The position numbers were made by a program, and so were the translations under genes. 64,000 nucleotides of DNA from the sequence record NZ_CP097382.1; one strand, given 5' to 3'. The notes beneath the pieces are model-generated. The model ran no database searches, had not been told where the DNA came from, and worked only from the letters and a program-made list of their open reading frames with translations. Of this stretch, positions 16,450 to 42,939 are shown piece after piece. Each line of letters begins with the position of its first letter. Position 1 is the stretch's first letter. Origin of the DNA: a plasmid.

Positions 16450-17013
16450 ATGGAACGCAAAACACTGACGTTAAAACGTCCGGCGATAAAAAAAGACTCG
16501 GAAAGTACTGAACCGGTTATTCAACGTCGCCGTAAACAGGTGGTGGTTAATACACAGCGTAAACCCCATAAACCCGCCAAAACAGCGCCAGCTCAACCTA
16601 CTAAAAAAGTAACCCCTGCGAAAAAACAGAAAGCGGTGGTCATCCCATTAGAAAAAAAAGTTATTCCGCCAACGCCACCCAAAAAACATCTCCCCTTAGA
16701 GGACGCTATCGCGAATATCTCTGAATATTGGCCACAACTCTTTCCCAATGGACAACTTCGACCGATGGCGGTAGGCACACGTGAAGCCTTATTGGCGGAT
16801 AAAAAGGTGCGTGAATTGCCGATTTCATACAAAAAATTGAAACGCAGTCTGGCCGCTATTAGCCACAGTGTGAAATATCGCACGACGATTATGCCTGGTG
16901 CGGTACGCTATGATAAAGACGGTCAGCCGAATGGGACTGTCACGGAATCGGATGTCGCCGATACGTTAAAACGCATACAAAGACTCGCTAAACAACAATC
17001 ACGACCCGCATGA
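16450..17013 (+). CDS. finO: FinO/ProQ-family RNA chaperone (fertility inhibition protein FinO-like)
   Basis: The Lys-rich N-terminus MERKTLTLKRP… and …YWPQLFPNGQLRPMAVGTREALLADKKVRELPISYKKLKRSLAAISHSVKYRTTIMPGAVRYDKDGQP… parallel F FinO (…[24 protein letters not shown]…SHKKLRRALKAIT…AGACRYD…). Confidence 0.85.
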   Translation: MERKTLTLKRPAIKKDSESTEPVIQRRRKQVVVNTQRKPHKPAKTAPAQPTKKVTPAKKQKAVVIPLEKKVIPPTPPKKHLPLEDAIANISEYWPQLFPNGQLRPMAVGTREALLADKKVRELPISYKKLKRSLAAISHSVKYRTTIMPGAVRYDKDGQPNGTVTESDVADTLKRIQRLAKQQSRPA

Positions 17014-17458
17014 CAAAAGTAATAAATCCCCCGATTTCTATCCCCATGTTATCAGCCCATTTCAGCAGGGTGTTGGCAGCACAGGCAAACAACTGATTGA
17101 GTAACGGCCAGTTGAGATTAAAGGCAGGCCAGAGTTTATCAGGCATGGTGAAGGTGATGTGCTGCCATTCGCAGTCGGGCAGAATGTGTTGTTGCTCAGC
17201 TATCCACTGTTCGGTGGCTTTCATACCACAGGCACTGCAGCCTTTGCTTTTGCAGCTCTGGCAGAAATATTTTGAGTGAGTACAGTCGGGAGAGGCGCAG
17301 CAATAACGTCGGATCCCCATGGCACTGGTGCCGCAGGCGAGCATGCGCTCAATGACCAGTTTAGTCCATTCGGGAACAGTAGAGCCGTGTTTGATGAGTA
17401 GCCGGTTCCAGCCGTCATCAATCTGAAAGAGAAGTTTTGCTGGTCGGGGAATATACAT
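16988..17458 (-). pseudogene. IS91-family transposase, N-terminal 156-aa fragment (a divergent variant of the full copies)
   Basis: MYIPRPAKLLFQIDDGWNRL…CTHSKYFCQSCKSKGCSACG…DCEWQHITFTMP… is about 75% identical to the N-terminus of the 399-aa transposase at 17697. Its upstream end …GCAGGCGGCTATTGTTC (17537–17541) abuts IS91 copy 1, and the fragment overlaps the finO 3' end. Confidence 0.8.
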
Positions 17459-17541
17459 ACAGCGGATTATAACGGGAGACAGTGACTGAGGACAGCCATT
17501 GACTTGCAGAGTCTTAGCTCCGCCGCAGGCGGCTATTGTTC

Positions 17542-18983
17542 ATGGTTAGGAAACTGGATGAACAATTTAACGAGTCTATAAGGGTATGTTTGGTAGCAGA
17601 GTCTGTTAAAAGGTCTCTATCGTATTTAAACTTAACCATGATAACGCGTAATTGCGCTATTTTTAGCCAAAAACGGGGGTTTTAGATACACTGATCCTAG
17701 GCGGCTGTTTGCAGCCATCGTTTTTTGGCCATTTTATCCCGCCTTTCTGACAGTAAAGTGAGTGCGTGTATGCCTTTTTCCGCACTCATAAACCGCAGTC
17801 GGTTTCCACATAAAATACATTGATACGGATCTGTGTTTAAAAAACCTTTGATAAGGGCCGCAAAGCCGGGTTTTTCAGGTACGTTCGGATGTATCATGTC
17901 CAATGCGTCATACACTTTAGATAATAAACGCCCACGCTTGCGATTGGCTAAAAAACCATAATAGCGGATCATCTTAAAATGCCGCGCGGGGATATGACTG
18001 ACATAACGTCGTATCATTTCTTCTTGGGACAAGGTCTGTCGTCGATATTGTTGGCTATGGTGATCATAATAATGATGGATGACTGTGCCACCGCTGTAGT
18101 GTTTCAACTGAGACGCCGAGATAGGCGGACGTTTTAGGTATCGGCCCAGATATTTCACATTATGCCAAGCGCCTCGGGTCTTTTTGGCAAAATGGAGTTT
18201 CCAATAACGTTGAAACTGTGCATTGAGGTAACGACACCAGGTTGGGTAATCGCGAATATGCCCGAAGCCAGGCAATTTATTCGGTTGTAACTGAGCATAA
18301 TTGTCTCGAAGGAGCCGAATAACGGCGCTGCGCCAGACTTTCTCGACGTCTTTCTTTTTGAAAAAAATGGGTTTCCAGGTGTCATATTTTGTGAGACCGC
18401 CTCGGGTCACCGACAAATGAATATGCGGATGTTGATTAAGTTGGCGACCATAAGTATGCAAGGCACAAAAAATACCAATTTCGAGGCCATGACGTCTGGC
18501 GTGTTTGAGCATAGCTCGCGTGGCACAGCGAAATAGTTGATTAAGTAAGGTCCAGTTGTTGTTAAAAAAAGACCAAAGCAGGTGGGGCATCGTGAGGGTG
18601 ATGTGTTGCCATTCGCAGTCTGGCAAAATATGGCGCTGCTGTGCGATCCATTGTTCGGTGCCCTTGAGGCCACAGGCACTGCAGGCTTTGGATTTACAGG
18701 TTTGACAAAAGAATCGCGAATGCGTGCATTCAGGAGAAGAGCAGCAATAGCGGCGAACACCCATCGCGCAGGTGCTACAAGCGAGCATCTTTTCAACACA
18801 GAGGAGTTGCCATTCATCGACAGGGTTGTTATCAATGAAGCGGTTCCATCCGTCATCGTATTGAAATAGCAGTTTAGCGGGTCTGGGAATATACATAGAG
18901 CAGAGTATAAAAGACGAGAAGGGAGTTGCCTAGAAATAGAGCGGCTCAGCCGCGATGCTCACGCCACAGGCGTGCTTATGTTC
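17542..18983 (-). mobile_element. IS91-family (HUH Y2, rolling-circle) insertion sequence, copy 1
   Basis: Identical by eye (not recomputed) to 41496–42939. A GTTC tetranucleotide immediately flanks the transposase-downstream end (17538–17541), and the element ends …GTGCTTATGTTC at 18983. Confidence 0.85.
17697..18896 (-). CDS. tnpA: IS91-family transposase
   Basis: 399 aa with an N-terminal zinc-binding cluster (CxxC…CxxC), the HUH motif …HPHIHLSV… and C-terminal tyrosines …RYYGFLAN…. Confidence 0.9.
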   Translation of the reverse strand: MYIPRPAKLLFQYDDGWNRFIDNNPVDEWQLLCVEKMLACSTCAMGVRRYCCSSPECTHSRFFCQTCKSKACSACGLKGTEQWIAQQRHILPDCEWQHITLTMPHLLWSFFNNNWTLLNQLFRCATRAMLKHARRHGLEIGIFCALHTYGRQLNQHPHIHLSVTRGGLTKYDTWKPIFFKKKDVEKVWRSAVIRLLRDNYAQLQPNKLPGFGHIRDYPTWCRYLNAQFQRYWKLHFAKKTRGAWHNVKYLGRYLKRPPISASQLKHYSGGTVIHHYYDHHSQQYRRQTLSQEEMIRRYVSHIPARHFKMIRYYGFLANRKRGRLLSKVYDALDMIHPNVPEKPGFAALIKGFLNTDPYQCILCGNRLRFMSAEKGIHALTLLSERRDKMAKKRWLQTAA

Positions 18984-19426
18984 TTTCCATACGTAAACAA
19001 TCGATGAATTATTTCCTGTCATGCCATACTTTTTACAATCAAAAGTTCCTGATGTTGCTGATTTCGCTGAGGCATTTGGGATATACACTGTAGTCATAAT
19101 AGAGCGCCTATCCTTGACAACATTTTCGATATAACGTCGAGCAGTAGATTCATTGTCTAATAAATTACTACAATCTATCTGATCTATAGTAAAATATCTC
19201 ACATATTCTCCATTGGAGTATAAAATGGAAATATAAACCGAATCTTTTCTATGGCACCCACCGCACTTATCTCCAGGCCAATCTCCTTTATAATAAAAAA
19301 ACGTTACTTGGATCCCCTACATATATAGCAGAACCACTCTTTCCATCCGAAGATAAATCAACATTAAAACCCGCAAAACAAATAGAAGTATAAAATCCCA
19401 ACACAGAAAAGATCAAAATTTTAATC
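18930..19426 (-). pseudogene. Small secreted Cys-containing protein interrupted by a frameshift at a T7 tract
   Basis: The minus strand from 19426 reads MIKILIFSVLGFYTSICFAGFNVDLSSDGKSGSAIYVGDPSNVF, then a (T)7 run (plus-strand A7 at about 19296–19302) shifts the frame into …YYKGDWPGDKCGGCHRKDSVYISILYSNGEYVRYFTIDQ…EPLYF (ORF 18930–19202). A run of 6 T would give one ORF of about 164 aa. Confidence 0.5.
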
Positions 19427-19477
19427 ATATATAAAAACCTCTAATAAATATTTTTTTTTCTGGCTATTAAGCATTAA

Positions 19478-19968
19478 TTATTCGTACGACAGCGTAAAGC
19501 CAGCTACGGAGCTAATTTCACCGGCAGTGATAGTTTTAATATCACCACCACTACCCATTAAATACGCCGAGAAACGCAGGGTATTATTACCATCCTGAAT
19601 ATTTTGGAATGGAGTTAGTGTAGCTAACGTAATTACATTCCCGCCACCATTTGTAATTTGCACGCCTACTCCGCGCCAGTACCAACAATACCTAATGTTT
19701 TATTTGAATTATCAAATGAAGCTGCTGCACCACTAAATGTTAATTGAACGCCTTTCTTTACGTCAGTTACATCACAATTTTCTAAAGAGATGTCAAAAGT
19801 ACGTGGAGTAGATTTACCACCATTAACTAAAGCCATATTTGATATTTGTCCAAGCTCAACAGTTTGATCAATTGAATTTGGTGCAATAGAACATGGTACA
19901 TCAATAATAGAGCCTTTAAAATTCACTTTTCCATGGCCCATATCTGCTGCAAAAATAGAGGTGCTCAT
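19478..19968 (-). pseudogene. mrpA-like major fimbrial subunit paralog, frameshifted
   Basis: Fragments 19666–19968 and 19478–19663 together are about 93% identical to the intact subunit at 23764–24294. The frame changes near …GIVGTGAE*/VGVQITNGGG. Confidence 0.75.
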
Positions 19969-20074
19969 AGCACTAGAAACTAGTGCTAATAAAAAGATTT
20001 ATTCATATATTCCTAGATTATTTACAAAATTTTCAAAAGTTTTTATTTTTGTGAAAATGTTTAAATTACGATGG

Positions 20075-20404
20075 TTAATAAAAGTAGGTAGTATCGGAAG
20101 ATGCAATTATTGCTTTCAATAATATTGGGTTATCAGAATTCCCACCCTCCATTTCAACTAAAATATATTTAATTATTTTTTCAAGTGGAACATTTAAAAT
20201 AATTGATAAATTAAATAACGTACTCAAAGAAATTTTATTAACTCCACGTTCATATCGAGACATCTGTTGTTGTGATATATTTAATTTTCTTGCCAGTTCA
20301 TCTCCTGTCATTCCACGTTCTCTTCTAATTCTCTTAATAATTTTTCCGCAATAAGTGGAAATTTCATTTTCGTGACTAATAATTATATTTTTTTTAATTT
20401 GCAT
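20075..20404 (-). CDS. MrpJ-like HTH regulator
   Basis: …GDELARKLNISQQQMSRYERGVNKISLSTLFNLSIILNV…. It lies immediately upstream, on the same strand, of the mrpA-like pseudogene. The ORF table starts at a TTG (20422), but the ATG at 20404 is the probable start. Confidence 0.75.
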   Translation of the reverse strand: MQIKKNIIISHENEISTYCGKIIKRIRRERGMTGDELARKLNISQQQMSRYERGVNKISLSTLFNLSIILNVPLEKIIKYILVEMEGGNSDNPILLKAIIASSDTTYFY

Positions 20405-20956
20405 GTTTATTATTACTTCCAAAAAAATAAAAATGATTACCTATTATTAATTGTCCATAAATGATTGGCTGTTTTTTTAATTAACACAATTATAAAAAGT
20501 AAATAATTAAAAGTAAAACTCCTTTAATTGAACCGTATATTAAGTATCAAATTGTTACAACTTTTACTAAATAGTGATAAGACTTTAAATATCAATGAAT
20601 TATAAAAAAACATCAGTTTAATTGTTTTTTATCCACTCGAAAATGGATAAAAAAAAATCAATATTTTAATCTAAAAATAAACTAAAAATAGATATTTAAA
20701 GTTGAAATTTACGAAAATTAATAATTTGACTTAAATATTTGCAAAAAAAACAAAAAAGAAACACAATACGCATTTACTGGGTTTTTTATTTAATGAAAAA
20801 AGCTTAATAAAATAATAATAATCATTGTTTTTCAAATAATTACCTTCAAACTCTATTGGCGCGTTAATGGTTGGGTAAATGGATGAATTGTTTAACGGGT
20901 CATGTATTCAATCCGGTGTGTATCCTGTAATATAGGTAATTTACCGGAAAATAGTC

Positions 20957-21223
20957 ATGACTAAAGTCGATGTAAGGTGCGCATTTTGTCTACAAACTTC
21001 CTCAGTGAAAAAACATGGATTAGGGAGTACTGGCAACCAACATTATCGTTGCCAAGACTGCAGCCGAAGCTTCCAACTCGATTATGAATATCGAGCCTGC
21101 CAACCCGGAACTCAAGATAAAATTATCGACCTAACGATGAATAATGCAGGTATTCGTGATACTGTCAGGGCTCTTCATATCAGCATTAATGCTGTTGTTC
21201 GTACTTTAAAAACTCTCGCCTAA
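20957..21223 (+). CDS. insA: IS1 InsA-like protein
   Basis: 88 aa whose zinc-finger N-terminus and HTH C-terminus resemble IS1 InsA. Confidence 0.8.
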   Translation: MTKVDVRCAFCLQTSSVKKHGLGSTGNQHYRCQDCSRSFQLDYEYRACQPGTQDKIIDLTMNNAGIRDTVRALHISINAVVRTLKTLA

Positions 21224-21279
21224 TCAGGTAACTTCTTTACCCCTTGATAATTTGCACATTGAACTCCTTTGCAAGGTTG

Positions 21280-21656
21280 ATGAATAGTAGTCTTTTGTCG
21301 CTAATAAGAGGCAACAACGCTGGCTCTTATATGCTTGGGAGCCCCGTCTAAAACGGATTATTGCTCATATATTTGGTCGTCGAAACAAGAGCCCCCTTCG
21401 TCAGTTACTGGCTTTACTATCGAGGTTTAATGTGGCTTTTTGGTGCGCGGATAAGTTCAGTGCTTATGAGATATTGTCCAAACAAAAATATGTGGTAAGT
21501 AAGTTTTATACACAACGAATAGAAAGAGAGAATTTGAACTTGAGAAACCGTTTAAAGCGACTTAACCGTAAGACTTTAGGTTACTCAAAGTCACCAGAAA
21601 TGCATGACAAAATCATCGGCACATTCATAGAGCGTGAATACTATCTATTATTATGA
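21280..21656 (+). pseudogene. insB: IS1 InsB-like region, frameshifted/fragmented
   Basis: InsB-like peptide segments lie in different frames and no continuous insB ORF exists. Confidence 0.55.
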
Positions 21657-21763
21657 TGATCTCTATATTGAATACACGCCCCCTTTTTCTGTACTCATAA
21701 ACCGCGGTCGGTTCCCATATATGTTAATGATGATAAACTTCATTTCTCAATAACACATTAATT

Positions 21764-22325: not shown

Positions 22326-22794
22326 TGGGCTTGTTGCAAATAATAAATTAGCGTATTTTTTGCCCATGCCCCATGCCCCATGCCCCATGCCCCATGCCCC
22401 ATGCCCCATGCCCCATGCCCAATGGCATGTTTCACGCTAAAACCGTCTCCACATTGAATAAGCGATTCATAAAGGCAGAGCGCTCCCGTACACGAAACTC
22501 GGGTTCATCACGACGTAGCCATTCATCAAATTGACCCTTATTCAGTTTCCGCAAAGTTTCAATGCCTTGGATTGTTGCCCAGGCCCGCTTAGAGATTTTG
22601 AACCCCTCGTTCAGCCAGCATATCACTGACGTTGGCATAACTGAGTGGTGTTGAGCCATACTAACGTAAACACCAAAGGATAATCGTGGAGGCAAAATGT
22701 TTCCATTTGAACTCATTCGCTGACATGGCTTTTCCTAAAGAGAGCATCGACAGTATGAGTGTTTATCAATTAGGTAATTTTTGCAACAAGCCCC
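22326..22794 (-). mobile_element. IS6-family (IS26-like) internally deleted remnant, MITE-like, copy 1
   Basis: Terminal inverted repeats GGGGCTTGTTGCAAA… sit at both ends (IS26 IR-like GGCACTGTTGCAAA). The interior encodes the N- and C-terminal pieces of an IS6 transposase (…FKWKHFASTIILWCLR…, …KRAWATIQGIETLRKLNKGQFDEWL…) with the catalytic core deleted. It is about 95% identical to copy 2 apart from a heptamer repeat expansion. Confidence 0.7.
22362..22424. repeat. Heptanucleotide tandem repeat (CCCCATG)x9 with imperfect end units
   Basis: Direct reading gives gcccatg, then ccccatg seven times, then cccaatg. The IS6-remnant copy at 33154–33583 carries a single unit at the equivalent place. 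Confidence 0.9.
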
Positions 22795-22813: not shown

Positions 22814-23348
22814 TTATTTTCAAACGCTAGGCGAGTTAATATATAAATCAATTTATTATAATATTTCATGGTGTTTTTATAAAATTAGCTTTTCATTATA
22901 AAAGCAGTCACAGTAAGGCCTAATAGGGTACTTGAGAACAAATAGGAGCATGGCCAAATAACCCAAAATAAGCGTATTTACTTGTTTTTATTTGTGCGTA
23001 TATTACAAAATAATACAAATTATAAATATGTGTTTATCCTAGATTAATGTTTTGTTTTTTAATTGTTTATGATTTATTATTCTGCGTTTGGCTTGTCAAT
23101 TTTTGACTAATTAAAATTTAAAAAAATTAACTAACCTAACTTACCTAATGATATGTAGGTAAAATTAAAGGGTATTAAAAATTGTAACATGAGAGTAATT
23201 AAGTAAAAGTTCGATAGGAGACGGTTTGATCTTTAAGTTTTACACCTTATAATTGTACCCGCTTGCTTAAACCCGTTATGAATTTTATATTTATTTAATT
23301 ACTAATTTTAAATTAGTAATTGTTTTCAATTACTGGAAAGATTACTAA

Positions 23349-23682
23349 TATGAAATTTGAAAAGAATAGCATTAATAGTCAGTGCGATAATCTATTTTCA
23401 ATTTACTGTGGAGCTGTTATTAAAAAGATCAGAAAAGAGTGTGGGATGACTGGCACTGAACTGGCAAGAAAATTAAATGTTTCACAGCAACAGATGTCTC
23501 GGTATGAACGAGGTATTAATAAGATTTCAATAGATATGTTATTTAATTTATCAATGGCATTGAATGTCCCATGTGAAAAAGTAATTAAAAATGCTTTACT
23601 TGAAATGGAAAAATCAAATTGTGATGACGAGTTAATATTGAAAAAATTATTAATAGCTTCTAATACCGTCCACTTTTATTAA
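23349..23682 (+). CDS. MrpJ-like HTH regulator located upstream of the major pilin gene
   Basis: …GTELARKLNVSQQQMSRYERGINKISIDMLFNLSMALNV…, about 60% identical to the ORF at 20075. The ORF table starts at a TTG (23320), but the ATG at 23349 is the likely start. A 23-bp perfect palindrome ATTACTAATTTTAAATTAGTAAT lies at 23298–23320. Confidence 0.75.
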
Positions 23683-23763
23683 TCATAGTTAAATAAATAT
23701 TTTTTAGTAATAGTAGTAATAGAAGTAAATCAAGTTGTTTGTTTATAAATCATTGAGGAATAT

Positions 23764-24294
23764 ATGAAGAAAATATTATTATTAGCACTAGTTTCTAGTG
23801 CTATGAGCACTTCTGTACTTGCTGCAGATATGGGCCATGGAAAAGTGAATTTTAAAGGCTCTATTATTGATGCACCATGTTCTATTTCACCAAATTCAAT
23901 TGATCAAACTGTTGAGCTTGGACAAATATCAAATATGGCTTTAGTTAATGGTGGTAAATCTACTCCACGTAATTTTGACATCTCTTTAGAAAATTGTGAT
24001 TTAACTGACGTAGAGAAAGGTGTTCAATTAACATTTAGTGGTGCAGCGGCTTCATTTGATAATTCAAACAAAACGTTAGGTATCGTTGGTACTGGTGCAG
24101 GAGCAGGCATACAAATTACAAATGGTGGCGGGAATGTAATTACGTTAGGTACACCAATACCATTCCAAAATATTCAAGATGGGAATAATACCCTGCGTTT
24201 CTCGGCGTATTTAATGGGTAATGGTGGTGATATTAAAACTATTACTGCCGGTGAATTTAGCTCCGTAGCTGACTTTACGCTGTCATACGAATAA
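23764..24294 (+). CDS. mrpA: Major fimbrial subunit, MrpA-like (MR/P-type)
   Basis: 176 aa with a signal peptide, …GSIIDAPCSISPN…NCD… and a C-terminal …FTLSYE. AGGAA lies 6 bp upstream of the ATG. I recognise an MrpA-like pattern but cannot verify it. Confidence 0.85.
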   Translation: MKKILLLALVSSAMSTSVLAADMGHGKVNFKGSIIDAPCSISPNSIDQTVELGQISNMALVNGGKSTPRNFDISLENCDLTDVEKGVQLTFSGAAASFDNSNKTLGIVGTGAGAGIQITNGGGNVITLGTPIPFQNIQDGNNTLRFSAYLMGNGGDIKTITAGEFSSVADFTLSYE

Positions 24295-24370
24295 TCAATA
24301 TTTAGTAGCTAGCAAAAAAGGATATTTTGCTGGCTTATTTCAAATGGAAGCCAGCGTAGGAGAGGAAGCA

Positions 24371-24907
24371 ATGAAATATTTAATGATCAGTAAACTGCTT
24401 TCGTTGAGTCTTAGTATGTATTCTCTCATAAATATTTCCCCTGCCAATGCGCTAGGTTTGGTAAAGATGAGTGGCAGTATCATTGAAACAGCCTGTGCTA
24501 TTGATGTTGGTAGCCGTGATCAAACTATTAATATGGGAAGCCTCTCTCTGAGTGATATCCGTCGAGATGGTCAAGGCCCAGTACATCCGTTTGTTATTAA
24601 GTTAGTTAATTGTGTTCTTGAACGTCAAAACCCGAATAAACCTAATTGGCAATACTTTCGAGTCACCTTTGATGGTGCACATCAACACGGATTATTTAGT
24701 GTGAATGGTCAAGCCAAAGGTGTTGGACTACAAATTCAACGTAATGATGGCAGAGAAATTATTGTTCCAGGACAAGCTCTATCTGCTCAAACTTTGACGC
24801 AAGGCTCCCGTGATTTAGCTTACGAATTAAGGTTGGTAGCTAATCATACTCCATTAGTATCAGGGCAGTACTACAGCCAATTAAGCTTTAAATTGGATTA
24901 TGAATAA
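24371..24907 (+). CDS. Fimbrial subunit, MrpB-like
   Basis: Pilin-like sequence ending …LSFKLDYE, with conserved Cys residues and the second operon position. Confidence 0.7.
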   Translation: MKYLMISKLLSLSLSMYSLINISPANALGLVKMSGSIIETACAIDVGSRDQTINMGSLSLSDIRRDGQGPVHPFVIKLVNCVLERQNPNKPNWQYFRVTFDGAHQHGLFSVNGQAKGVGLQIQRNDGREIIVPGQALSAQTLTQGSRDLAYELRLVANHTPLVSGQYYSQLSFKLDYE

Positions 24908-25001
24908 TTCAATTATTAATTTTATATGTCAAAACCAAGTATTGATTTTGAATAAAAAAGCTAAATGGTTTTATTAATAAAAAAGAAATAAGAAGGTCGA
25001 G

Positions 25002-31235: not shown

Positions 31236-31258
31236 CACGATAAAAGGAAATGAGAAAA

Positions 31259-33656: not shown

Positions 33657-33929
33657 GTGTTAATAATTAACACACAAGGTGATCCTATAGCTCGTACAAC
33701 AAGTGTAACTATCGGGGCTCAATTGGATGAGTTTGTAAATCAACTCATATCGTCTGGAAGATATGGTTCAACAAGTGAAGTTGTTCGCTCTGCTCTACGT
33801 CTACTTGAGGTTCAAGAAAAACAAACGGCAGCATTGAAAATTTTAATTGATGCAGGTGAACAAAGTGGTGAGTCGTCGTTAACACTACATGATATCGCTA
33901 AAAAAGTGAAGAATGCTCATAATGTATAA
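33657..33929 (+). CDS. parD: ParD-family antitoxin (RHH)
   Basis: …TSVTIGAQLDEFVNQLISSGRYGSTSEVVRSALRLLEVQEKQTAALKILIDAGEQSGES… is classic COG3609/ParD. Confidence 0.75.
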   Translation: MLIINTQGDPIARTTSVTIGAQLDEFVNQLISSGRYGSTSEVVRSALRLLEVQEKQTAALKILIDAGEQSGESSLTLHDIAKKVKNAHNV

Positions 33930-34019: not shown

Positions 34020-35078
34020 GATAATAAGTGCAACGCTCGGTCATGTTAGATGGAAGGACGGTTAGCTACTGATAAGCTATCCTGCTCTTCCGACCAAAGA
34101 TGAGCGAGTAAGTATGAAGTATCAGCAACTAACCGAAGGACAACGATACCAGATATCGATACTGCGTGAGGATAATTTATCCTGCCATGAGATAGGTATC
34201 CGTATCGGTGTAAGCAAGTCCACGGTCTCCCGTGAACTGAGGCGTAACACTTCAGATACTGGTTATAACCCACAACAGGCACACCAGAAGTGCTGTGATA
34301 GGCGGCTGTCATCTGCCAAAAGGACAATTCCTCAGCAGACCATAGATTTCGTGATATTTGCTCTGGAGTGGAAGTGGAGTCCTGAGCAAATAAGTGCAAT
34401 TGGCAGCATTATTGGTCTTAGCGTCAGCCATGAATGGATTTACCAGTATATCTATGCGGATAAGCGTAGCGGTGGCGAGTTGTACAGGCATCTTAGGCAG
34501 GGCAAACGGCGATATCGTAAGGGCTACGGGCAGAAACGAGGGCGCATCCCTGATGCGGTATCCATTGAGCTACGGCCGTCAGTCGTCGATGACCGTAGCC
34601 GTCTGGGGGACTGGGAGGCCGATTTGGTGCAGGGTAAACAGGGCACTGGTGCTATCGTGACACTGGCAGAACGCAAAAGCCGTATTTACCTGACAAAAAA
34701 GGTGTTTTCAAAGGATGCGGTGGAAGTCAGTAAGGCCATTATCTCACTGCTGAGTGAGTATCAGGATGTATGTCACACAATAACGTTCGATAACGGTCTA
34801 GAGTTTAGTGAGCACAAGGCGATAGCAGAAGCACTGAACGCAGATACGTACTTTGCCCATCCGTATGCCTCGCATGAGCGTGGGCTGAACGAGAATACGA
34901 ATGGGTTGTTAAGACAGTTTATCCCGAAAGGAACAGACCTGCGGACAGTGACAGAAGAAGACTTACAACGCTATCAGGGAGCGTTGAACAGCAGGCCACG
35001 CAAGTGTCTGGGGTTCAGACAACCTTCGGTGGTGTTTGCGGAGCTAAGAAAGGCGGCTTAGCGTTGCACTTCGGACTT
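34020..35078 (+). mobile_element. IS30-family insertion sequence (about 1.06 kb, ISApl1-size class)
   Basis: Candidate terminal inverted repeats carry AGTGCAACGCT at 34027 and AGCGTTGCACT at 35060–35070, and a 315-aa transposase lies inside. The boundaries are approximate. Confidence 0.65.
34114..35061 (+). CDS. IS30-family transposase
   Basis: An N-terminal HTH (…GQRYQISILREDNLSCHEIGIRIGVSKSTVSRELRRN…) and a DDE region (…DWEADLV…TFDNGLEF…NENTNGLLRQFIPKG…) are present. Confidence 0.9.
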   Translation: MKYQQLTEGQRYQISILREDNLSCHEIGIRIGVSKSTVSRELRRNTSDTGYNPQQAHQKCCDRRLSSAKRTIPQQTIDFVIFALEWKWSPEQISAIGSIIGLSVSHEWIYQYIYADKRSGGELYRHLRQGKRRYRKGYGQKRGRIPDAVSIELRPSVVDDRSRLGDWEADLVQGKQGTGAIVTLAERKSRIYLTKKVFSKDAVEVSKAIISLLSEYQDVCHTITFDNGLEFSEHKAIAEALNADTYFAHPYASHERGLNENTNGLLRQFIPKGTDLRTVTEEDLQRYQGALNSRPRKCLGFRQPSVVFAELRKAA

Positions 35079-35195
35079 GAATCCGCCAATCGAAGAAATA
35101 ATAATAGAGTGACAAATTATCACTCTATTATTGGGGGTGATGCAAATAATGAATTAGTGTGTTTTTTGCTCGAGCATAATAATTGAAATATTTGG

Positions 35196-36173
35196 CTAAC
35201 TTCCTGTAAACCAAATAAAGCCTCCCATTGTTATTACAGACAAAATCGTACTCCAAAATAGGGTTGATGCCATTTCTTGTTCACCTGTTTTATATTCCAC
35301 CGCAAAAATAACAGCAATGGATGCTGTAGGAATAGCTAAGGTAACCGAAACTAAACCACGTTCAACATGAGGTATAGATAAGGCGATCATTATCACTAGA
35401 ATAATTAATGGCAATAAAATATTCTTGCTAAGTACGTTTATGATTACTGGAATAGAAAAACTGACTTTTTGTGCGTAAAGAACAGCTCCGACGGCAAATA
35501 ATGCAACCCCGCCTGTTGCTTGACCTAATAAAATAAATGAGCCTTTTAAGAACTTCGGCATATCTAAGCCAATTAATAACAAAATAAAAGCAAGGATTGG
35601 TGCCCATACAACAGGTTGTATAATTGCATTTTTTATACTGCTAGCAATAACTGAAAAAGCACCTTGCTTACTTGTTGAAGTATCATTGGTATCGGCCCCC
35701 ACTAAAAAGATTAAGGCTAATGGAACCTGAATTAAATTCATTAATAAGCTGCCAACGGCAATTGCAATGTCTGCATCAATAGGAAATAACACACCTAATA
35801 CGGGAGTTCCAACAAAAGGTACAGCGGGACCGGCAATGGCAATAGCGCGCAATGCAGCTAAACGCGCACTAGATTTGAAAATAAAACGGGAGATAAGAAA
35901 AACAGTAATAAATCCCACAACCATACCAACGAAGATCCACAAGAAAACATCAACATTACTGATTATTTCAGTGAGTGGAGTACTCAGAATTCCCGCAAAT
36001 AGTAATAGTGGTAATGCATATAACATCACCATTTTATTTAATACAGTAGCTTGATCTTTATTGAAATCATGCCTACACCCTGCAAAATATCCAAGTAAAA
36101 GCGTTACCACGATCGGTAATAATGCTGTAATAATTGTATCTAACATCAGATAGCCTCTTACTATTCGAAACAA
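35196..36173 (-). CDS. AEC-family (auxin-efflux-carrier / MleP-type) membrane transporter
   Basis: 325 aa with about 10 transmembrane segments and a start (…TIITALLPIVVTLLLGYFAG…) and overall pattern typical of malate/malonate permease-type AEC proteins. It is co-directional with the decarboxylase gene. Confidence 0.75.
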   Translation of the reverse strand: MFRIVRGYLMLDTIITALLPIVVTLLLGYFAGCRHDFNKDQATVLNKMVMLYALPLLLFAGILSTPLTEIISNVDVFLWIFVGMVVGFITVFLISRFIFKSSARLAALRAIAIAGPAVPFVGTPVLGVLFPIDADIAIAVGSLLMNLIQVPLALIFLVGADTNDTSTSKQGAFSVIASSIKNAIIQPVVWAPILAFILLLIGLDMPKFLKGSFILLGQATGGVALFAVGAVLYAQKVSFSIPVIINVLSKNILLPLIILVIMIALSIPHVERGLVSVTLAIPTASIAVIFAVEYKTGEQEMASTLFWSTILSVITMGGFIWFTGS

Positions 36174-36214: not shown

Positions 36215-37840
36215 TTACAACAAAGGCGGGGTTGTTGGAATAATAGGAACTTCAATGACAGTAGGAACTGAACGAGAAAATGCTTCCTTACAGATTTGGT
36301 TGATTTCATCTAATGTTTCAGCTCGTACACCAACACAGCCGTAACCTTTTGCCAAAGAAACAATATCTAAATCAGGTAAATCTAGACCCGGAACGCCAGG
36401 TGAATTTTCTAATTTTGCAAAAGATTTCAAAATTGCATATTCACCATTACGTGGCACAACAAACAATATTGGTAATTTAAGCTGAGCAGCTGTCCATAAA
36501 CCTTGAATTGAATATTGCAAAGAACCATCACCAATAATGGCAAGAACCGGACGATTTTTACCGCTATCTCTTTCAGCTAATGCAATACCAATACTCGCGG
36601 GTAAATTCCAGCCAAGGCTTCCACTGGCAAAAGTATAAAAAGAATCGGGTTTATCAATTGACCATGCGGTATGTAACTCGCCAAGGTTAGAGGGTGATTC
36701 TTCAACTAATATTGTATTTTCAGGTGTAAACTCACGCAAACCTTTAAAGAGTTCTAATGCTGAAAGTTGTTCACCTTCTTGCTGTTCTGCCGCAGGGTGG
36801 GGAGACATTCTGTGTGATTGTTGTGGTATTTTAGGAGGTGTTGCTGTACGTTTTTGTACTCGGTTGAGTAATGCTTCTAGTGCTAATACTGGGCTAGATA
36901 ATAGGCTGTCACCAACAGGTGCTTTTCCTGATTCATTAGGATCATCTGTAATATGCAATAACTGCAATCCTTCTGGAATGTACTCACCCGCTACATAGGG
37001 ATAATAACGGAATATTGGTGCTCCAATGACAATAGCAACATCATAACCTGCTAATTGTTTTGATAATGGCTCAATAGCAAAAGGCAAGCCACCTGCATAC
37101 AGTGGATGAGTTTCAGGGAATGATGGCACTTCAGAAGCCGGTGCGCTGAATACATGGCAATTCAATTTCTCGGCTAATTGAATACCGATATCCCAACCTT
37201 GTCCACGAGCAATCCCAGCGCCATAAATAAGAGCCGGATTTTTAGCTGTTGAAAGAAGATCAGCAAATTGAGAAATGAGAATAGGATCTGGAGCATATCG
37301 TGATGCTACGCTCCGCACAACGGCATCTCCTAGCGCAGGTTTATCCCAATCATCTAATGGAATAGATAAAAAGACAGGACCAGCAGGTGGCTGTAATGCC
37401 ATCGCGTAAGCTCGCATAAATGCAGCAGGTACATCTTCAGCTCTGACTGGTTCATAGCTCCATTTTATCCAGGGTTTAGGCAATTCTGTAGGTGAAACGT
37501 TAGTTAACCATGGTTCCATAAGTAACATTTCTCGCGTTTGGTTTCCAGCGGTAATAATTAATGGTGTTTTATTTTGTGCCGCTGTCATGATGTTACTCAT
37601 TGAGTTACTTAAACCTGCAGAAGTATGGACGTTAACAATCGCGGGTTTACGAGTTGCTTGTGCATAGCCATCAGCAGCACCAACTGCGGATGATTCGTGT
37701 AATGTTTGCACGTAACGGAAATCTTCAGGAAAATCCTTTAAAAAAGTTTCCTCAGTTGAGCCTGGATTACCAAATAAAGTAGTTAATTCAAGTTTGCGTA
37801 GTAAATTAAAAGTGACATCACGAATAGTTTTTACCTTCAT
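36215..37840 (-). CDS. Thiamine-pyrophosphate-dependent decarboxylase, benzoylformate decarboxylase (MdlC)-like
   Basis: 541 aa that aligns along its length with benzoylformate decarboxylase: …LTTLFGNPGSTEETFLKDFPEDFRYVQTLHESSAVGAADGYAQATRKPA…, …WSYEP…, the TPP motif …IIGDGSLQYSIQGLWTAAQ… and …VPRNGEYAIL…. Confidence 0.8.
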   Translation of the reverse strand: MKVKTIRDVTFNLLRKLELTTLFGNPGSTEETFLKDFPEDFRYVQTLHESSAVGAADGYAQATRKPAIVNVHTSAGLSNSMSNIMTAAQNKTPLIITAGNQTREMLLMEPWLTNVSPTELPKPWIKWSYEPVRAEDVPAAFMRAYAMALQPPAGPVFLSIPLDDWDKPALGDAVVRSVASRYAPDPILISQFADLLSTAKNPALIYGAGIARGQGWDIGIQLAEKLNCHVFSAPASEVPSFPETHPLYAGGLPFAIEPLSKQLAGYDVAIVIGAPIFRYYPYVAGEYIPEGLQLLHITDDPNESGKAPVGDSLLSSPVLALEALLNRVQKRTATPPKIPQQSHRMSPHPAAEQQEGEQLSALELFKGLREFTPENTILVEESPSNLGELHTAWSIDKPDSFYTFASGSLGWNLPASIGIALAERDSGKNRPVLAIIGDGSLQYSIQGLWTAAQLKLPILFVVPRNGEYAILKSFAKLENSPGVPGLDLPDLDIVSLAKGYGCVGVRAETLDEINQICKEAFSRSVPTVIEVPIIPTTPPLL

Positions 37841-38183: not shown

Positions 38184-39220
38184 GTCACTCAGAACCTCGG
38201 CTGACGTTTGGTCTTAAAGACCAAGCTTATTTTTTAACACTTCATACGGTGTTTTACCAGCATGAGCTGAGTGGGGGCGATGACAATTATAAAATGCCTC
38301 CCATTCAGCTAATTTTTCATGTAAATCGACATCATCCTTATAATCGATTAATTGATAAAATTCCTGTTTATCTGTTAAATGAGAACGCTCTACTTTCCCA
38401 TTCAATCTGGGGGTAGCTGGCTTAATATAGACATGCTCCATCCCTAGATCATGAATATGCCAATTAAATTTAGACTGGAATTCGTGCCCATTATCCGTTC
38501 TAATCGTTTTGATTCTAAAGGGAAATTTATTTACAACATAATTAATAAAATCAATAGCATTAGCCTGATTGTGCCTTTCATAAATTTTAAGTGCTCTGAT
38601 CCGTGTCGCATCATCAATTGCTGTATATTGAAAACGTTTAATTCGTTGTCCATCAGGCGTATTAAAAAATAAAAACTTCACATCGACCTGAACATGGTGC
38701 CCTGGCACTTGTTTCTGATAACGTTTAAATAGTGGTTTAGAGCGACTTCGCTGATTTTGGGGAAGTTGGTTTAATTTGTTTCTGAGCAATACATAATAGC
38801 AGCCAGAGCGTGATATTTTGATGTTATGAAACCGTAGAAGATACCAAGCGATACGTTGGGGACCAAAATGGTAAGTCGTACGCAGATAAATAACCAGCTC
38901 TTCGATGTGTTTTGCAACTCTTCTGGTTGGATTTTCAGGGCAGGGTTTATTGTTGATTAATCCTTTCTCGCCATCTCGTTCATAAGCTCTTTTCCAAGTA
39001 TAAAAAGTTTCTCTACTGATCCCAAAATGACGACAAGTTTTAGCAATATTTTTGCTCTCACGGGCATGATTTAAGATTTTTGTTTTATGTGCAATATCTC
39101 GTTTAGCTTTAATGTTCATCATATCTGACCTCCGGCTACAATTAGAAAAAACTAATTGTCAACCGAAGTCCAGACTTTCATAGGCATCTGATATCGTACG
39201 ATGAGACGGTGACAGAGCCT
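38184..39220 (-). mobile_element. IS481-family insertion sequence
   Basis: A 302-aa DDE transposase sits between TGTCAC-type ends (38184 TGTCACTCAGAACC… and …CGGTGACA at 39220). The boundaries are approximate. Confidence 0.55.
38214..39122 (-). CDS. IS481-family transposase
   Basis: An N-terminal HTH (…CRHFGISRETFYTWKRAYERDGEKGL…) and a DDE core (…VQVDVKF…TDNGHEF…VERSH…). Confidence 0.85.
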   Translation of the reverse strand: MMNIKAKRDIAHKTKILNHARESKNIAKTCRHFGISRETFYTWKRAYERDGEKGLINNKPCPENPTRRVAKHIEELVIYLRTTYHFGPQRIAWYLLRFHNIKISRSGCYYVLLRNKLNQLPQNQRSRSKPLFKRYQKQVPGHHVQVDVKFLFFNTPDGQRIKRFQYTAIDDATRIRALKIYERHNQANAIDFINYVVNKFPFRIKTIRTDNGHEFQSKFNWHIHDLGMEHVYIKPATPRLNGKVERSHLTDKQEFYQLIDYKDDVDLHEKLAEWEAFYNCHRPHSAHAGKTPYEVLKNKLGL

Positions 39221-39379: not shown

Positions 39380-39736
39380 TTGTTTATGTGGGAAATATTA
39401 ACGAGAGATCTCTTTGATTCTTGGTTTGAAGAACAAAACGAGGAAACTCAGATTGAAGTGTTGGCGGTGTTAATGATTTTGCGCGAGGATGGTCCAAACC
39501 TTGGCCGGCCCCAAGTCGATACACTGAAAGGCTCACAGTTTCCCAACATGAAGGAACTGCGAATCCAGGTTGGCGGTCATCCAATTAGAGCGTGTTTTGC
39601 ATTTGACCCTATACGCCGTGGTATTGTGTTATGCGCGGGTGATAAAAAAGGAAAAGACGAAACCCGTTTCTATAAGAAATTGATCAAGATGGCTGATGCT
39701 GAATATGCAGCGCATCTATTAGAGCAGGAGAAATAA
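39380..39736 (+). CDS. Type II toxin, RelE/ParE-superfamily HigB-like (Gp49/DUF891-like)
   Basis: A 118-aa toxin-first arrangement whose stop overlaps the start of an XRE-HTH gene (…AAHLLEQEK*/ATG). Its size and arrangement fit HigB-2-type toxins. Confidence 0.55.
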   Translation: MFMWEILTRDLFDSWFEEQNEETQIEVLAVLMILREDGPNLGRPQVDTLKGSQFPNMKELRIQVGGHPIRACFAFDPIRRGIVLCAGDKKGKDETRFYKKLIKMADAEYAAHLLEQEK

Positions 39737-39737
39737 C

Positions 39738-40037
39738 ATGTCCACTTTAGATAAACTACTTGCAAAACAATCCCCTGAAGCACGGGCACAAATCGAAGCA
39801 AGAGCTGAAGAAATTCGGCGTGAAATAACGCTGGCAAAAATTCGTGAGGAACTTAATCTTTCTCAAACGGAGCTGGCTCAATCACTGGGCGTTTCACAAC
39901 CTTCTATTGCTAAGCTTGAGAAGGTTGATAACGATCCTAAGCTTTCAACTCTAAAGCGCTATATTAAAGCTTTAGGTGGTGAACTTTCTATAGATGTCAC
40001 GCTACCTAATGGTAAGCGGATAGGATTGAGTTTATAA
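39738..40037 (+). CDS. HigA-like antitoxin (HTH_XRE)
   Basis: …LAKIREELNLSQTELAQSLGVSQPSIAKLEKVDNDPKLSTLKRYIKALGGEL…. Confidence 0.65.
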   Translation: MSTLDKLLAKQSPEARAQIEARAEEIRREITLAKIREELNLSQTELAQSLGVSQPSIAKLEKVDNDPKLSTLKRYIKALGGELSIDVTLPNGKRIGLSL

Positions 40038-40219
40038 AAACACCCTCCTAGGGGCAGTTTGGATATCGAAAATTATTGTACGGTAAGCCTGTTTTTTGAA
40101 CCGGCTTACCTATAGCAATCGGGTATACTCAAGGTGAACCGATTAATCATTGTGCTTTGATATCTATTATGAAAGAAGCAGATATTAAAGTTTCTTTAAA
40201 TGATTAGAATTTGACTATG

Positions 40220-41491
40220 TTAATTAAATCCATATTTTTCTCTTCGACGATTGAATGCGTCTTTACCGCCTTCGAGTATTTTTGCGGCTAATGACTGTAT
40301 TGATTTTTGATCTATCGAGCCTTGATTATTTTTTGGTAGTGCCGCGCTGTCTGCTGTTGCTTCAAGAACACCAATCCATTCAGCATCACCAAATACTGGA
40401 ATATTTGCATTATGTGTAGCGAAAATGAATTGTCGTGTTAATTTGGCACTTCTCACCTGAGACACTATTCTGTCGGCAATAAATGCGTTGTCTAGGTTAT
40501 CTTCGGGTTGGTCTAGTAACAGAGGATCTTTGTTATCTAGAAGCAACAAATGTAGTAAGGCTGTACATTGTTGACCCGTTGATAATGAGTTGAGAACTTT
40601 ATAAATAGGTGTAGGTGTCTCGCTGCTGGAAACATTGAGTTCAATACTTACTAAGTCTTCAACGATAAATTCTTCAATCTCCATGATTTGAGATTCTGAA
40701 ATTTTAGTTAGCTGCTCCGCAACAGATTCTGTACAGCCCCAATTTTGTGTGAGGATTGCGTCTTTACCTTCAATAATTTTTTCTGCTAATAGCATTGGAG
40801 AGAAATGCTCTGCGGTACTAATCCACTGAAGCTTTTTGTTAGCAACGTTTGGCATTCTGAAGGATACGAGTTTGTCAATTAAAGAATTGCGATTCCCCTC
40901 TGGAGTATAGTTTACTTTTATGTTGCCTTTCAGCTTTCGATTTAGTTTTTTCACACCTTGTTCAAATTGACTACTTCGCTGAGACATTTTGTTCGAGAGC
41001 GAAGACAGTAATATTTTCCTCATAGCTACCATTTGAGCGAGTTTAGTTTTTGACTCGATTAATTTTGTTTTGCTCGATTTCAACAGCGCAATGTCTTTCA
41101 CTAACTGGTTATATTCATCACCAATCTGAGAGCCTGTTTTTCCAGCTATAGGGCTAATCTTCTTAAACTCTTTTTCTATTGTAGCCTCATTGGCTTGAAT
41201 ACTTGTATCAAGGCGCTTTTCTAGTTCAACTATCGCGATATTGTCGCTAGCAAGTCTAGTCATTGCTTGCCCTAGCATAGTACCTAAATCTTTGTTCAAA
41301 TTTGTGATGATGTTTCTAAGTTCTCTAAAGATTAATATATCGGGAAAATCCTTGATATCTTCTTCCAAAATGTAGTCTGTTGAGGGAATACCTTCTACCA
41401 TCTCACCTAATGCGGTGGAAAAATCAAAAAGCATTTCACTTACGGTTCTAAATAGCGTTTTCTCTGATGCGAGCAACGGCAAAATTTTTAG
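40220..41491 (-). pseudogene. SMC/RecF-like ABC ATPase, C-terminal half (gene interrupted by IS91 copy 2)
   Basis: The coiled-coil region is followed by the ABC signature …LSTGQQCTALLHLLLL…, Walker B/D-loop …LLLDQPEDNLD… and H-loop …IFATHNANI…. The first 10 codons of the ORF-table version lie inside IS91 sequence, so the true fragment ends at the IS boundary. Confidence 0.7.
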
Positions 41492-41495
41492 TTGT

Positions 41496-42939
41496 TCATG
41501 GTTAGGAAACTGGATGAACAATTTAACGAGTCTATAAGGGTATGTTTGGTAGCAGAGTCTGTTAAAAGGTCTCTATCGTATTTAAACTTAACCATGATAA
41601 CGCGTAATTGCGCTATTTTTAGCCAAAAACGGGGGTTTTAGATACACTGATCCTAGGCGGCTGTTTGCAGCCATCGTTTTTTGGCCATTTTATCCCGCCT
41701 TTCTGACAGTAAAGTGAGTGCGTGTATGCCTTTTTCCGCACTCATAAACCGCAGTCGGTTTCCACATAAAATACATTGATACGGATCTGTGTTTAAAAAA
41801 CCTTTGATAAGGGCCGCAAAGCCGGGTTTTTCAGGTACGTTCGGATGTATCATGTCCAATGCGTCATACACTTTAGATAATAAACGCCCACGCTTGCGAT
41901 TGGCTAAAAAACCATAATAGCGGATCATCTTAAAATGCCGCGCGGGGATATGACTGACATAACGTCGTATCATTTCTTCTTGGGACAAGGTCTGTCGTCG
42001 ATATTGTTGGCTATGGTGATCATAATAATGATGGATGACTGTGCCACCGCTGTAGTGTTTCAACTGAGACGCCGAGATAGGCGGACGTTTTAGGTATCGG
42101 CCCAGATATTTCACATTATGCCAAGCGCCTCGGGTCTTTTTGGCAAAATGGAGTTTCCAATAACGTTGAAACTGTGCATTGAGGTAACGACACCAGGTTG
42201 GGTAATCGCGAATATGCCCGAAGCCAGGCAATTTATTCGGTTGTAACTGAGCATAATTGTCTCGAAGGAGCCGAATAACGGCGCTGCGCCAGACTTTCTC
42301 GACGTCTTTCTTTTTGAAAAAAATGGGTTTCCAGGTGTCATATTTTGTGAGACCGCCTCGGGTCACCGACAAATGAATATGCGGATGTTGATTAAGTTGG
42401 CGACCATAAGTATGCAAGGCACAAAAAATACCAATTTCGAGGCCATGACGTCTGGCGTGTTTGAGCATAGCTCGCGTGGCACAGCGAAATAGTTGATTAA
42501 GTAAGGTCCAGTTGTTGTTAAAAAAAGACCAAAGCAGGTGGGGCATCGTGAGGGTGATGTGTTGCCATTCGCAGTCTGGCAAAATATGGCGCTGCTGTGC
42601 GATCCATTGTTCGGTGCCCTTGAGGCCACAGGCACTGCAGGCTTTGGATTTACAGGTTTGACAAAAGAATCGCGAATGCGTGCATTCAGGAGAAGAGCAG
42701 CAATAGCGGCGAACACCCATCGCGCAGGTGCTACAAGCGAGCATCTTTTCAACACAGAGGAGTTGCCATTCATCGACAGGGTTGTTATCAATGAAGCGGT
42801 TCCATCCGTCATCGTATTGAAATAGCAGTTTAGCGGGTCTGGGAATATACATAGAGCAGAGTATAAAAGACGAGAAGGGAGTTGCCTAGAAATAGAGCGG
42901 CTCAGCCGCGATGCTCACGCCACAGGCGTGCTTATGTTC
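41496..42939 (-). mobile_element. IS91-family insertion sequence, copy 2 (identical to copy 1)
   Basis: Identical by eye (not recomputed) to 17542–18983, with a flanking GTTC at 41492–41495. Confidence 0.85.
41653..42852 (-). CDS. tnpA: IS91-family transposase
   Basis: 399 aa identical to the product of 17697–18896. Confidence 0.9.
   Translation of the reverse strand: MYIPRPAKLLFQYDDGWNRFIDNNPVDEWQLLCVEKMLACSTCAMGVRRYCCSSPECTHSRFFCQTCKSKACSACGLKGTEQWIAQQRHILPDCEWQHITLTMPHLLWSFFNNNWTLLNQLFRCATRAMLKHARRHGLEIGIFCALHTYGRQLNQHPHIHLSVTRGGLTKYDTWKPIFFKKKDVEKVWRSAVIRLLRDNYAQLQPNKLPGFGHIRDYPTWCRYLNAQFQRYWKLHFAKKTRGAWHNVKYLGRYLKRPPISASQLKHYSGGTVIHHYYDHHSQQYRRQTLSQEEMIRRYVSHIPARHFKMIRYYGFLANRKRGRLLSKVYDALDMIHPNVPEKPGFAALIKGFLNTDPYQCILCGNRLRFMSAEKGIHALTLLSERRDKMAKKRWLQTAA

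Follow-up and report, generated by a model that had tools for sequence, protein, structure and literature searches.

This analysis concerns a window of 64,000 nucleotides (nt) from the plasmid record NZ_CP097382.1, to which all positions refer, and in particular two copies of an insertion sequence (IS) of the IS91 family that stand 22.5 kb apart in it, with a fimbrial operon, a decarboxylase/transporter pair and other genes between them and a truncated older relative of the element abutting copy 1 (Table 1). Compared base by base at an offset of 23,956, 17536-18983 and 41492-42939 proved to be the same 1,448 bp, with 0 mismatches. The first six bases of this exact repeat, TTGTTC, are flanking DNA shared by chance, and the element proper measures 1,442 bp. 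Two identical copies in direct orientation, both on the minus strand, had been predicted, several differences on careful alignment being named as the outcome that would speak against the idea; no difference was found. The predicted coordinates of copy 1 stood, and the start of copy 2 had to be moved by 2, from 41496 to 41498. Taken as a whole, the locus very probably belongs to a Providencia-type IncFII-like plasmid carrying a live 1,442-bp IS, in which copy 2 is a recent arrival, the DNA between the copies was already resident and copy 1 occupies an old site that has been remodelled.

Table 1. Features of the locus (aa, amino acids; ORF, open reading frame; HTH, helix-turn-helix; TPP, thiamine pyrophosphate; oriIS and terIS, origin and termination ends of the element; L numbers denote loci or contigs from other assemblies; "segment" means 18984-41497)
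Feature	Position	Strand	Remarks
repA	14809-15744		annotated relatives
proQ/finO-family gene, plasmid backbone	16450-17013	+	annotated relatives, Pfam ProQ; downstream of repA
DUF2913 gene, first 30 nt	17010-17039	+	fused to truncated relative; same as start of intact 618-nt gene of p12105-NDM (L074)
Truncated older IS91-family relative	17024-17541	-	terIS end and transposase residues 1-143; lower boundary within 17024-17040
GTTC at oriIS of copy 1	17538-17541	+	also terminal tetranucleotide of truncated relative's terIS end
IS91-family element copy 1, 1,442 bp	17542-18983	-	oriIS end 17542, terIS end 18983; 100% identical to copy 2
oriIS end of copy 1, ATGGTTAGGAAA...	17542-17640		imperfect palindromes; end set by comparison, not by fold
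tnpA of copy 1, 399 aa	17697-18896	-	Pfam PF14319 and PF04986; HUH and tyrosine-pair motifs
terIS end of copy 1	18941-18983		hairpins 18941-18953 (5 bp) and 18960-18974 (6 bp), then CTTATGTTC; DNA fold
Fimbrial-operon remnant	18984-20422		segment
IS1 remnant	20957-21656		segment
IS91-family scrap, 40 nt	21682-21721		88% identical to 3' part of IS91-family tnpA; just downstream of IS1 remnant
Resolvase fragment	within segment		listed after 40-nt scrap
IS6-family fragments	22416-22794, 33155-33539		segment
Intact chaperone-usher (fimbrial) operon	23320-31801		segment
ParD-like antitoxin ORF	33657-33929		lone parD
IS30-family element	~34034-35087		absent from CP194437.1
AEC transporter	35196-36173		segment
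Benzoylformate-decarboxylase-like TPP enzyme	36215-37840		segment
IS481-family transposase	38214-39122		segment
Gp49/HigB-like toxin and HTH antitoxin, complete pair	39380-40037		segment
Plasmid backbone	40175-41497		contiguous with 42940 onward in relatives
AAA_21/Ppl-like ATPase ORF, 429 aa	40220-42951	-	split by copy 2 after codon 4; uninterrupted in L024, L039, L040
GTTC target of copy 2	41494-41497	+	abuts copy 2
IS91-family element copy 2, 1,442 bp	41498-42939	-	exact repeat of copy 1; empty site in L024, L039, L040
tnpA of copy 2, 399 aa	41653-42852	-	same 399-aa product as copy 1

The transposase (TnpA) contains the domains Zn_Tnp_IS91 (PF14319; 2.7e-15, 56.6 bits) and Y2_Tnp (PF04986; 2.1e-44, 152 bits), both above the curated cut-offs, with the HUH motif at H158-I-H160 and the tyrosine pair at Y249-LGR-Y253. 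The zinc-binding N-terminus and the Y2 HUH catalytic domain of the IS91 family are thus both present. Its amino acid identity was about 35% to annotated IS91, about 42% to the type common on Escherichia coli and Klebsiella plasmids and about 45% to copies on Pseudomonas syringae plasmids. Only 87 nt separate the terIS end from tnpA, so that there is no space for orf121. The features of IS91 in the strict sense (orf121, a CTCG terIS and high TnpA identity) were not found: the terIS is GTTC and the identity about 35%. On account of the missing space for orf121 and the identities of 35-45%, the element is taken as an IS91-family member of the IS801/IS1294-like kind that is an isoform of no characterised element. 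The family assignment made in the original prediction is borne out by the domains, the motifs, the ends and the target rule.

The ends were set by the point at which homology stops across six independent insertions, namely the two window copies and four relatives, about 89% identical at the nucleotide level, on Providencia and Klebsiella plasmids. In transposase orientation all six start with GAAC(A/G)TAAGCACGCC-loop-GGCGTG...GCGGC-loop-GCCGC and terminate in ...TTTCCTAACCAT. The four bases beyond this terminus are GAAC in five insertions and CAAG in one; on the opposite strand the tetranucleotide directly 5' of the oriIS end accordingly reads GTTC (5/6) or CTTG (1/6). The two ends are not inverted repeats of each other, with GAACATAAGCACGCC... 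at one and ...TTTCCTAACCAT at the other in all alleles. GTTC or CTTG stands 5' of just 374 of the 64,000 positions of the window (0.6%), so its presence beside both window copies (2/2) is not due to chance. A GTTC on the transposase-downstream side of each copy, and GTTC/CTTG targeting, had both been predicted; the former lies at 17538-17541 and 41494-41497, and the latter holds in all six insertions.

In the DNA fold, the terIS hairpins (6 bp and 5 bp) stand 9 nt from the terminal GTTC, and across the alleles compared their stems are constant while their loops differ. For the oriIS end no structure reached significance in the fold (z = -1.5 and +0.5). Comparison of the filled with the empty site at copy 2 revealed no target-site duplication. 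The terIS of IS801 and IS1294 has been described as a palindrome followed by 5'-GTTC, and GTCC (about 5% of insertions) and GTAC (about 1%) as minor IS91 targets (PMC13181058). The ends and targets of the window element fit the published IS801/IS1294-type description. By such a mechanism, the HUH/two-tyrosine transposase would nick beside a 5'-GTTC (or CTTG) target, rolling-circle copying would run from oriIS, downstream of tnpA, to terIS, with its two hairpins and then GTTC, and the element would land without duplicating the target.

The site of copy 2 was found empty in close relatives. A Logan (SRA) contig (L024) is 100% identical to 40072-41499 and 99.9% identical to 42935-49626; across the site, ...TTTTTAGTTGTTC is followed directly by ATCAATTCCC... 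in it. The same precise empty site, ...TAGTTGTTC followed by ATCAATTCCC... with nothing duplicated, is present in L024, in CP194437.1 (L039) and in GCA_049886655.1 (L040). The order of the window is kept, at 99.6-100% identity, in CP194437.1, a complete 51.4-kb plasmid (L033, L039), and in two contigs of GCA_049886655.1 (L032, L040), with 99.8-100% over the 22.5 kb between the copies; jointly their loci run from window position 49282 through the whole bracketed segment to about 9045, precisely without copy 2. In the Providencia stuartii plasmid CP099528.1, 40175-41499 and 42935-44700 are contiguous and form part of one 882-aa "DNA repair protein" gene.

Copy 2 splits a 429-aa ATPase ORF, leaving codons 1-4 at 42940-42951 and the remainder at 41497-40220. 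This ORF gave a partial Ppl match in PADLOC (6e-22), and its homologue in CP099528.1, an intact gene of the SMC/AAA type, a stronger one (2.7e-39). In the lineage of the window the gene (40220-44093) had been broken beforehand into ORFs of 62, 245, 95 and 429 aa, and it is probably a decayed defence gene. Since near-identical relatives hold the precise empty site, copy 2 is best regarded as a very recent simple transposition into a GTTC four codons inside this decayed Ppl-like gene. Its source would presumably be copy 1.

The 22.5 kb between the copies (18984-41497) are a mosaic and not a unit. A PLSDB megablast of this segment returned piecemeal matches only, with at most 38% coverage. Because relatives hold the segment collinear without copy 2, it was evidently part of the plasmid lineage beforehand and was not brought in by the IS pair, which makes the pair an accidental composite. 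Its right end is backbone, since 40175-41497 and the DNA past copy 2 constitute one gene in relatives. The original prediction, that the two copies delimit a cargo unit, is contradicted by CP194437.1 and GCA_049886655.1. It had proposed presence or absence of the segment in related plasmids as the check; the segment is present there, in the same order and without copy 2, essentially the outcome it had named as speaking against itself, and the tempting reading of an IS-bracketed cargo is hereby corrected. As to the cargo, the predicted fimbrial operon and TPP-decarboxylase/transporter pair are there, together with one complete toxin-antitoxin pair; the second of the two predicted toxin-antitoxin loci is a ParD-like antitoxin only, for which no toxin partner was listed, the toxin side not having been looked at in detail.

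The history of copy 1 is more involved. To its left, the truncated relative shares residues 1-143 with the window transposase at 68% aa identity (about 70-71% at the nucleotide level). It ends in ...GGCGGCTATTGTTC at 17541, exactly where copy 1 begins. Its hairpin, CCGCC-GCA-GGCGG followed by CTATTGTTC, differs in sequence from that of copy 1 and in the fold lies at the same distance from GTTC. The 156-aa ORF of the relative does not stop with the element but also covers 30 nt from the start of a DUF2913 gene and the 3' end of proQ. A truncated copy had been predicted at 16988-17541; it is real and its end is correct, the lower boundary lying within 17024-17040. Originally it was a canonical insertion after the GTTC at nt 199-202 of the DUF2913 gene, where p12105-NDM reads ...GTCGTTC followed by ATGATTTTGAATGG..., and a later deletion took away the oriIS two-thirds of the relative together with nt 31-202 of DUF2913. 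The same remnant was found without copy 1 in about ten other contigs (L009-L018, L044-L049), window 15600-17541 being 100% identical in them, so the relative is older than copy 1, as had been supposed. After the GTTC these contigs continue into the 3' part of DUF2913, a 188-aa gene and a Gabija-like gene pair. All of these were looked for in the window as the far end of a read-through and not found there. A search of the GTDB representative genomes for the relative's terIS end (CCGCCGCAGGCGGCTATTGTTC) gave no match, and hence no full-length copy or extra junction.

Some further observations were made in this region. In L009-L014 and L044 the Gabija-like pair (a 576-aa OLD/AAA ATPase and a 471-aa UvrD helicase) lies about 2-5.5 kb downstream of proQ. 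A variable defence/adhesin slot is thus seen beside the replicon, with the Gabija-like pair in relatives versus copy 1 and the fimbrial remnant in the window. In the rep_cluster_1220 Providencia plasmids, the DUF2913 gene downstream of proQ has received independent IS91-family insertions at GTTC sites 14 nt apart (L004, pYZLc5-3_30k; L074, p12105-NDM; window 17010-17541), and p12105-NDM has a further IS91-family copy about 0.95 kb downstream of it. The DUF2913 region is a local hotspot for the family.

To the right of copy 1, the junction between terIS and the fimbrial remnant is common to seven other loci (L029-L035), and it is always an IS91-family end that stands there. The window and these relatives together display three IS alleles and three oriIS junctions (GTTC, GTAC and GTCC), the terIS flank staying constant. 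Such a constant terIS flank with variable oriIS junctions would be an indirect trace of rolling-circle or one-ended movement. In the L029-type plasmids the IS is about 84-88% identical, has an internal deletion of about 110 nt, and its oriIS abuts GTCC at about codon 37 of proQ. In L032 (GCA_049886655.1) oriIS abuts GTAC at window position 16508; 16509-17541 are missing and the rest is 99.6-99.97% identical to the window (99.97% over 9045-16508). The IS of L032 (11422-12868) is a hybrid, of which about 1,200 nt from the terIS end correspond to the window allele and the last, oriIS-proximal 250 nt or so to the allele of the Klebsiella plasmid pK1HV. It is best read as a pK1HV-type copy that entered the GTAC in proQ and then recombined with the resident copy, the intervening DNA being deleted. 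The predicted capacity of direct IS91-family copies to recombine is borne out by this hybrid at the copy-1 site and its 1-kb deletion. A similar crossover origin was considered for the L029-type IS and rejected, since its differences from the window allele set in at the first hairpin loop and continue from there. Together these relatives point to the fimbrial-remnant site being an old IS91-family site whose oriIS side has been remodelled repeatedly by events typical of the family.

According to the original prediction, the insertion of copy 1 had taken place at the older relative's terminal GTTC. The exact GTTC/oriIS junction agrees with this, and the right flank does not. A simple insertion at the remnant's GTTC would leave ATGATTTTGAATGG past the terIS of copy 1; the 3' part of DUF2913 is absent from there and the fimbrial remnant is present instead (18984 onward), which excludes a plain insertion. 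The oriIS junction of copy 1 with the truncated relative was probably made by a second IS91-type event, for which two courses were weighed and rated about equal. By the first, which can be credited with somewhat less than an even chance, the element inserted canonically after the relative's GTTC, on an L010-like plasmid or elsewhere on the same plasmid, and then underwent homologous recombination with the IS at the fimbrial remnant. The junction is exactly GTTC/oriIS, the pattern of identities is that of a recombinant (15600-17541 being 100% identical to the L010 type and 9045-16508 99.97% to L032), and the hybrid of L032 demonstrates that crossovers between IS copies occur at this site. Against it, two steps are required, and copy 1, which is identical to copy 2 and differs by one base from L006, has no hybrid scar, so both partners would have been the same allele.

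By the second course, which is given a similar weight, rolling-circle copying started one-endedly at the resident oriIS, skipped the element's own terIS, passed round the plasmid via repA and proQ and stopped at the terIS of the relative. That hairpin and GTTC would have been met in the correct orientation, the circle would have closed terIS to oriIS, and the surviving plasmid would lack the DNA between, including the 3' part of DUF2913, the Gabija-like genes and more. The absence of these genes from the window is in keeping with this, and a single step covers both flanks, leaving the terIS flank in the ancestral state that L029-L035 also have and altering the oriIS junction alone. The GTAC and GTCC junctions of the relatives correspond to the known minor targets of IS91 (PMC13181058). 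Moreover, the process has been demonstrated experimentally for IS801 on P. syringae plasmids, where one-ended transposition generated plasmid deletions with a constant ori801 border and GAAC or CAAG at the new border, and where the deletion derivatives all retained repJ, with ori801 and the replicon beside it preserved (PMC6354349); the three junctions found here all lie just downstream of repA, as expected if survivors need the replicon. Conversely, the L032 hybrid is better explained by insertion and recombination, and the transposase would have to recognise the terIS of a relative that is about 70% identical over the part of the element common to both.

Several points weigh against the overall reading, and they concern mostly the order of events. 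No plasmid displays the state before the copy-1 junction, so that the sequence of steps there is a matter of inference. No terIS of the IS (GGCGTGCTTATGTTC) joined to ATGATTTTGAATGG, the intermediate of the first course, was found, nor was a molecule combining the truncated relative, the IS/fimbrial-remnant junction and the DNA between them, the ancestor needed by the second. Exact-protein look-ups with the transposase, ProQ and the 156-aa ORF returned no other plasmid with the junction of truncated relative and IS. The direction from copy 1 to copy 2 is deduced solely from the site of copy 1 being common to relatives, and a third copy outside the window could instead have seeded both.

It is very unlikely that the IS pair and the 22.5 kb constitute a transposed unit or came in as one, whether as a composite transposon or through one-ended read-through. 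The direct orientation, the perfect identity and the GTTC at both oriIS ends would suit such a unit, and one-ended transposition is known for the family, termination failure accounting for 1-14% of events with IS91 and IS1294 and being commoner without the IS91 Orf121 (PMC13181058). Neither contiguous outer flanks at an empty site nor loss of the cargo together with the pair was found, however: relatives keep the 22.5 kb in place and lack precisely copy 2, the final 1.3 kb of the supposed cargo belong to the same backbone gene as the DNA past copy 2, and the segment is built of other IS remnants. The 40-nt IS91-family scrap at 21682-21721 was considered as a surrogate read-through end and rejected, being too short and finding no support in relatives. 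It is scarcely credible that copy 2 arose in assembly, through a collapsed repeat being entered at two places; a misplaced consensus would likewise produce perfect identity, and the IS forms a contig of its own repeat length in two short-read assemblies (1,448 bp in L007 and 1,442 bp in L008), but the junctions of copy 2 are canonical, with a GTTC target and no duplication, and it precisely interrupts a gene that is intact, with 100% flank identity, in three other assemblies, which is unexpected from a mis-join.

With copy 2 read as a recent simple insertion into a resident backbone, the arrangement is one of ordinary plasmid IS dynamics. The element is new, its family is well known, and nothing here challenges the current view of that family; the re-use of a terIS site with allele replacement and nested junctions is the only mildly unusual aspect. 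Among named systems the closest is IS801 of P. syringae plasmids, an element of about 1.5 kb with a single tnpA, without orf121, with a GAAC/CAAG target abutting the ori end and a ter end made of a subterminal palindrome and GTTC. The P. syringae plasmid transposases are closest among the named groups, their identity as IS801 being presumed. In contrast, the amino acid identity is only about 45%, the host clade of the window is Morganellaceae/Enterobacterales, the window terIS has two hairpins, and IS801 has been studied experimentally, whereas the present element is known from its sequence alone.

IS1294 is about 1.7 kb long, longer than the window element. The E. coli and Klebsiella plasmid transposases taken to be those of IS1294 match the window one at about 41-42% aa. 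IS1294 and IS1294b resemble the window element in target (GTTC and GTCC, respectively) and in a GTTC terIS, and a single oriIS palindrome described for IS1294 sets that element apart (PMC13181058). IS91 of E. coli alpha-haemolysin plasmids has in common with the window element ori and ter ends that are distinct, an HUH-Y2 transposase whose N-terminus bears a zinc domain, and CTTG/GTTC targets without target duplication; it differs in having orf121 overlapping tnpA and a CTCG terIS, in contrast to the about 35% identical transposase, 87-nt leader and GTTC terIS of the window element. ISCR elements are built on the same superfamily principle, with oriIS on the downstream side of the transposase gene and mobilisation of upstream DNA when transfer runs past a terIS that is weak or missing. 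They typically lack a recognisable terIS and stand beside resistance genes, while the window element has both ends intact and its bracketed segment contains no resistance gene.

The pair of copies may nevertheless have consequences for the plasmid. Recombination between the identical direct copies would delete one copy together with 18984-41497, an event type also documented between IS801 copies (PMC6354349). Failure at the terIS of copy 1 would carry replication through the segment to the terIS of copy 2 and move IS, segment and IS as a unit. The fimbrial operon, the decarboxylase/transporter pair and one toxin-antitoxin pair would thus be liable to loss or to read-through mobilisation; so far no evidence was found that the window IS pair has deleted the segment or moved it by read-through. 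The complete toxin-antitoxin pair would be expected to select against deletion, as toxin-antitoxin loci restrict IS801-caused deletions of plasmids (PMC6354349).

A more speculative proposal, for which the probability is considered low, is that the GTTC and hairpin of an IS91-family terIS, even on a dead fragment, may dock or terminate other family members, so that occupied sites are re-used repeatedly. If true, only the outer flank would persist, with exchange or loss affecting both the IS allele in residence and the DNA on the oriIS side; the window and its relatives would form a natural series of this kind, and this would be the first sign of IS801-style one-ended plasmid trimming in Morganellaceae plasmids. 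The related plasmids provide a small natural record of how the IS91 family may reshape DNA beside a replicon, with a hybrid IS, nested junctions and re-use of terIS.

The distribution of the element was also assessed. The exact transposase occurs in three other assemblies only, and no PLSDB plasmid carries the window allele at 95% identity or more. In L006 the same IS, with 1 nt difference, sits in an unrelated plasmid context, which indicates that the element is mobile. An unnamed IS91-family element of 1,442-1,443 bp on Providencia, Proteus, Klebsiella and Citrobacter plasmids (pK1HV, NC_020087.1; pPROV013-PER, NZ_OK500122.1) is 89-89.5% identical over the full length; it has the same ends and the same target rule and differs from the window allele by about 10% of nucleotides. 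In a paper on Providencia plasmids it is labelled merely "IS91 family IS" (PMC12184191). The present analysis establishes where an unnamed IS91-family element, found on replicons of Providencia, Proteus, Klebsiella and Arsenophonus, begins and ends, which target rule it follows and that it was recently active; its relatives are widespread in Morganellaceae. In Arsenophonus nasoniae DSM 15247 (L055-L073), the initial 24-82 residues of a transposase with 85-94% identity to the window one were found at no fewer than 18 contig ends, and 34 Arsenophonus plasmid records also match the element. These matches suggest a massive expansion of this IS in the insect symbiont.

Other mobile elements have left their marks in the segment. 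The IS6-family fragments, about 380 nt long, lie in inverted orientation around the intact fimbrial operon and a 275-aa gene; their four arm pairs are 82-97% complementary, and they match the IS6-family (DDE_Tnp_IS240) transposase gene of L019 with 87-94% identity. Possibly the operon was at one time within an IS6/IS26-type composite structure. Far from the segment, at 149-4063 on the minus strand, the window has a second chaperone-usher cluster, comprising a 791-aa usher, a PapD-like chaperone and a DUF1120 protein. The fimbrial remnant, which derives from a second operon, consists of an HTH regulator and a frameshifted major-subunit gene and is cut at 18984 by the terIS of copy 1; 19453-20372 repeat part of the beginning of the fimbrial operon (23385-24319) in inverted orientation and diverged form (77-95%). 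The L009-type relatives have an IS91-family scrap of their own, 104 nt long and different from the 40-nt one, and these IS91-like scraps look like traces of still older copies. The IS30-family element, just downstream of the ParD-like ORF, matches, at 100% identity, copies from a plasmid of Proteus mirabilis and from an mcr-3.1 plasmid of E. coli, and its absence from the otherwise identical CP194437.1 marks it as another recent insertion.

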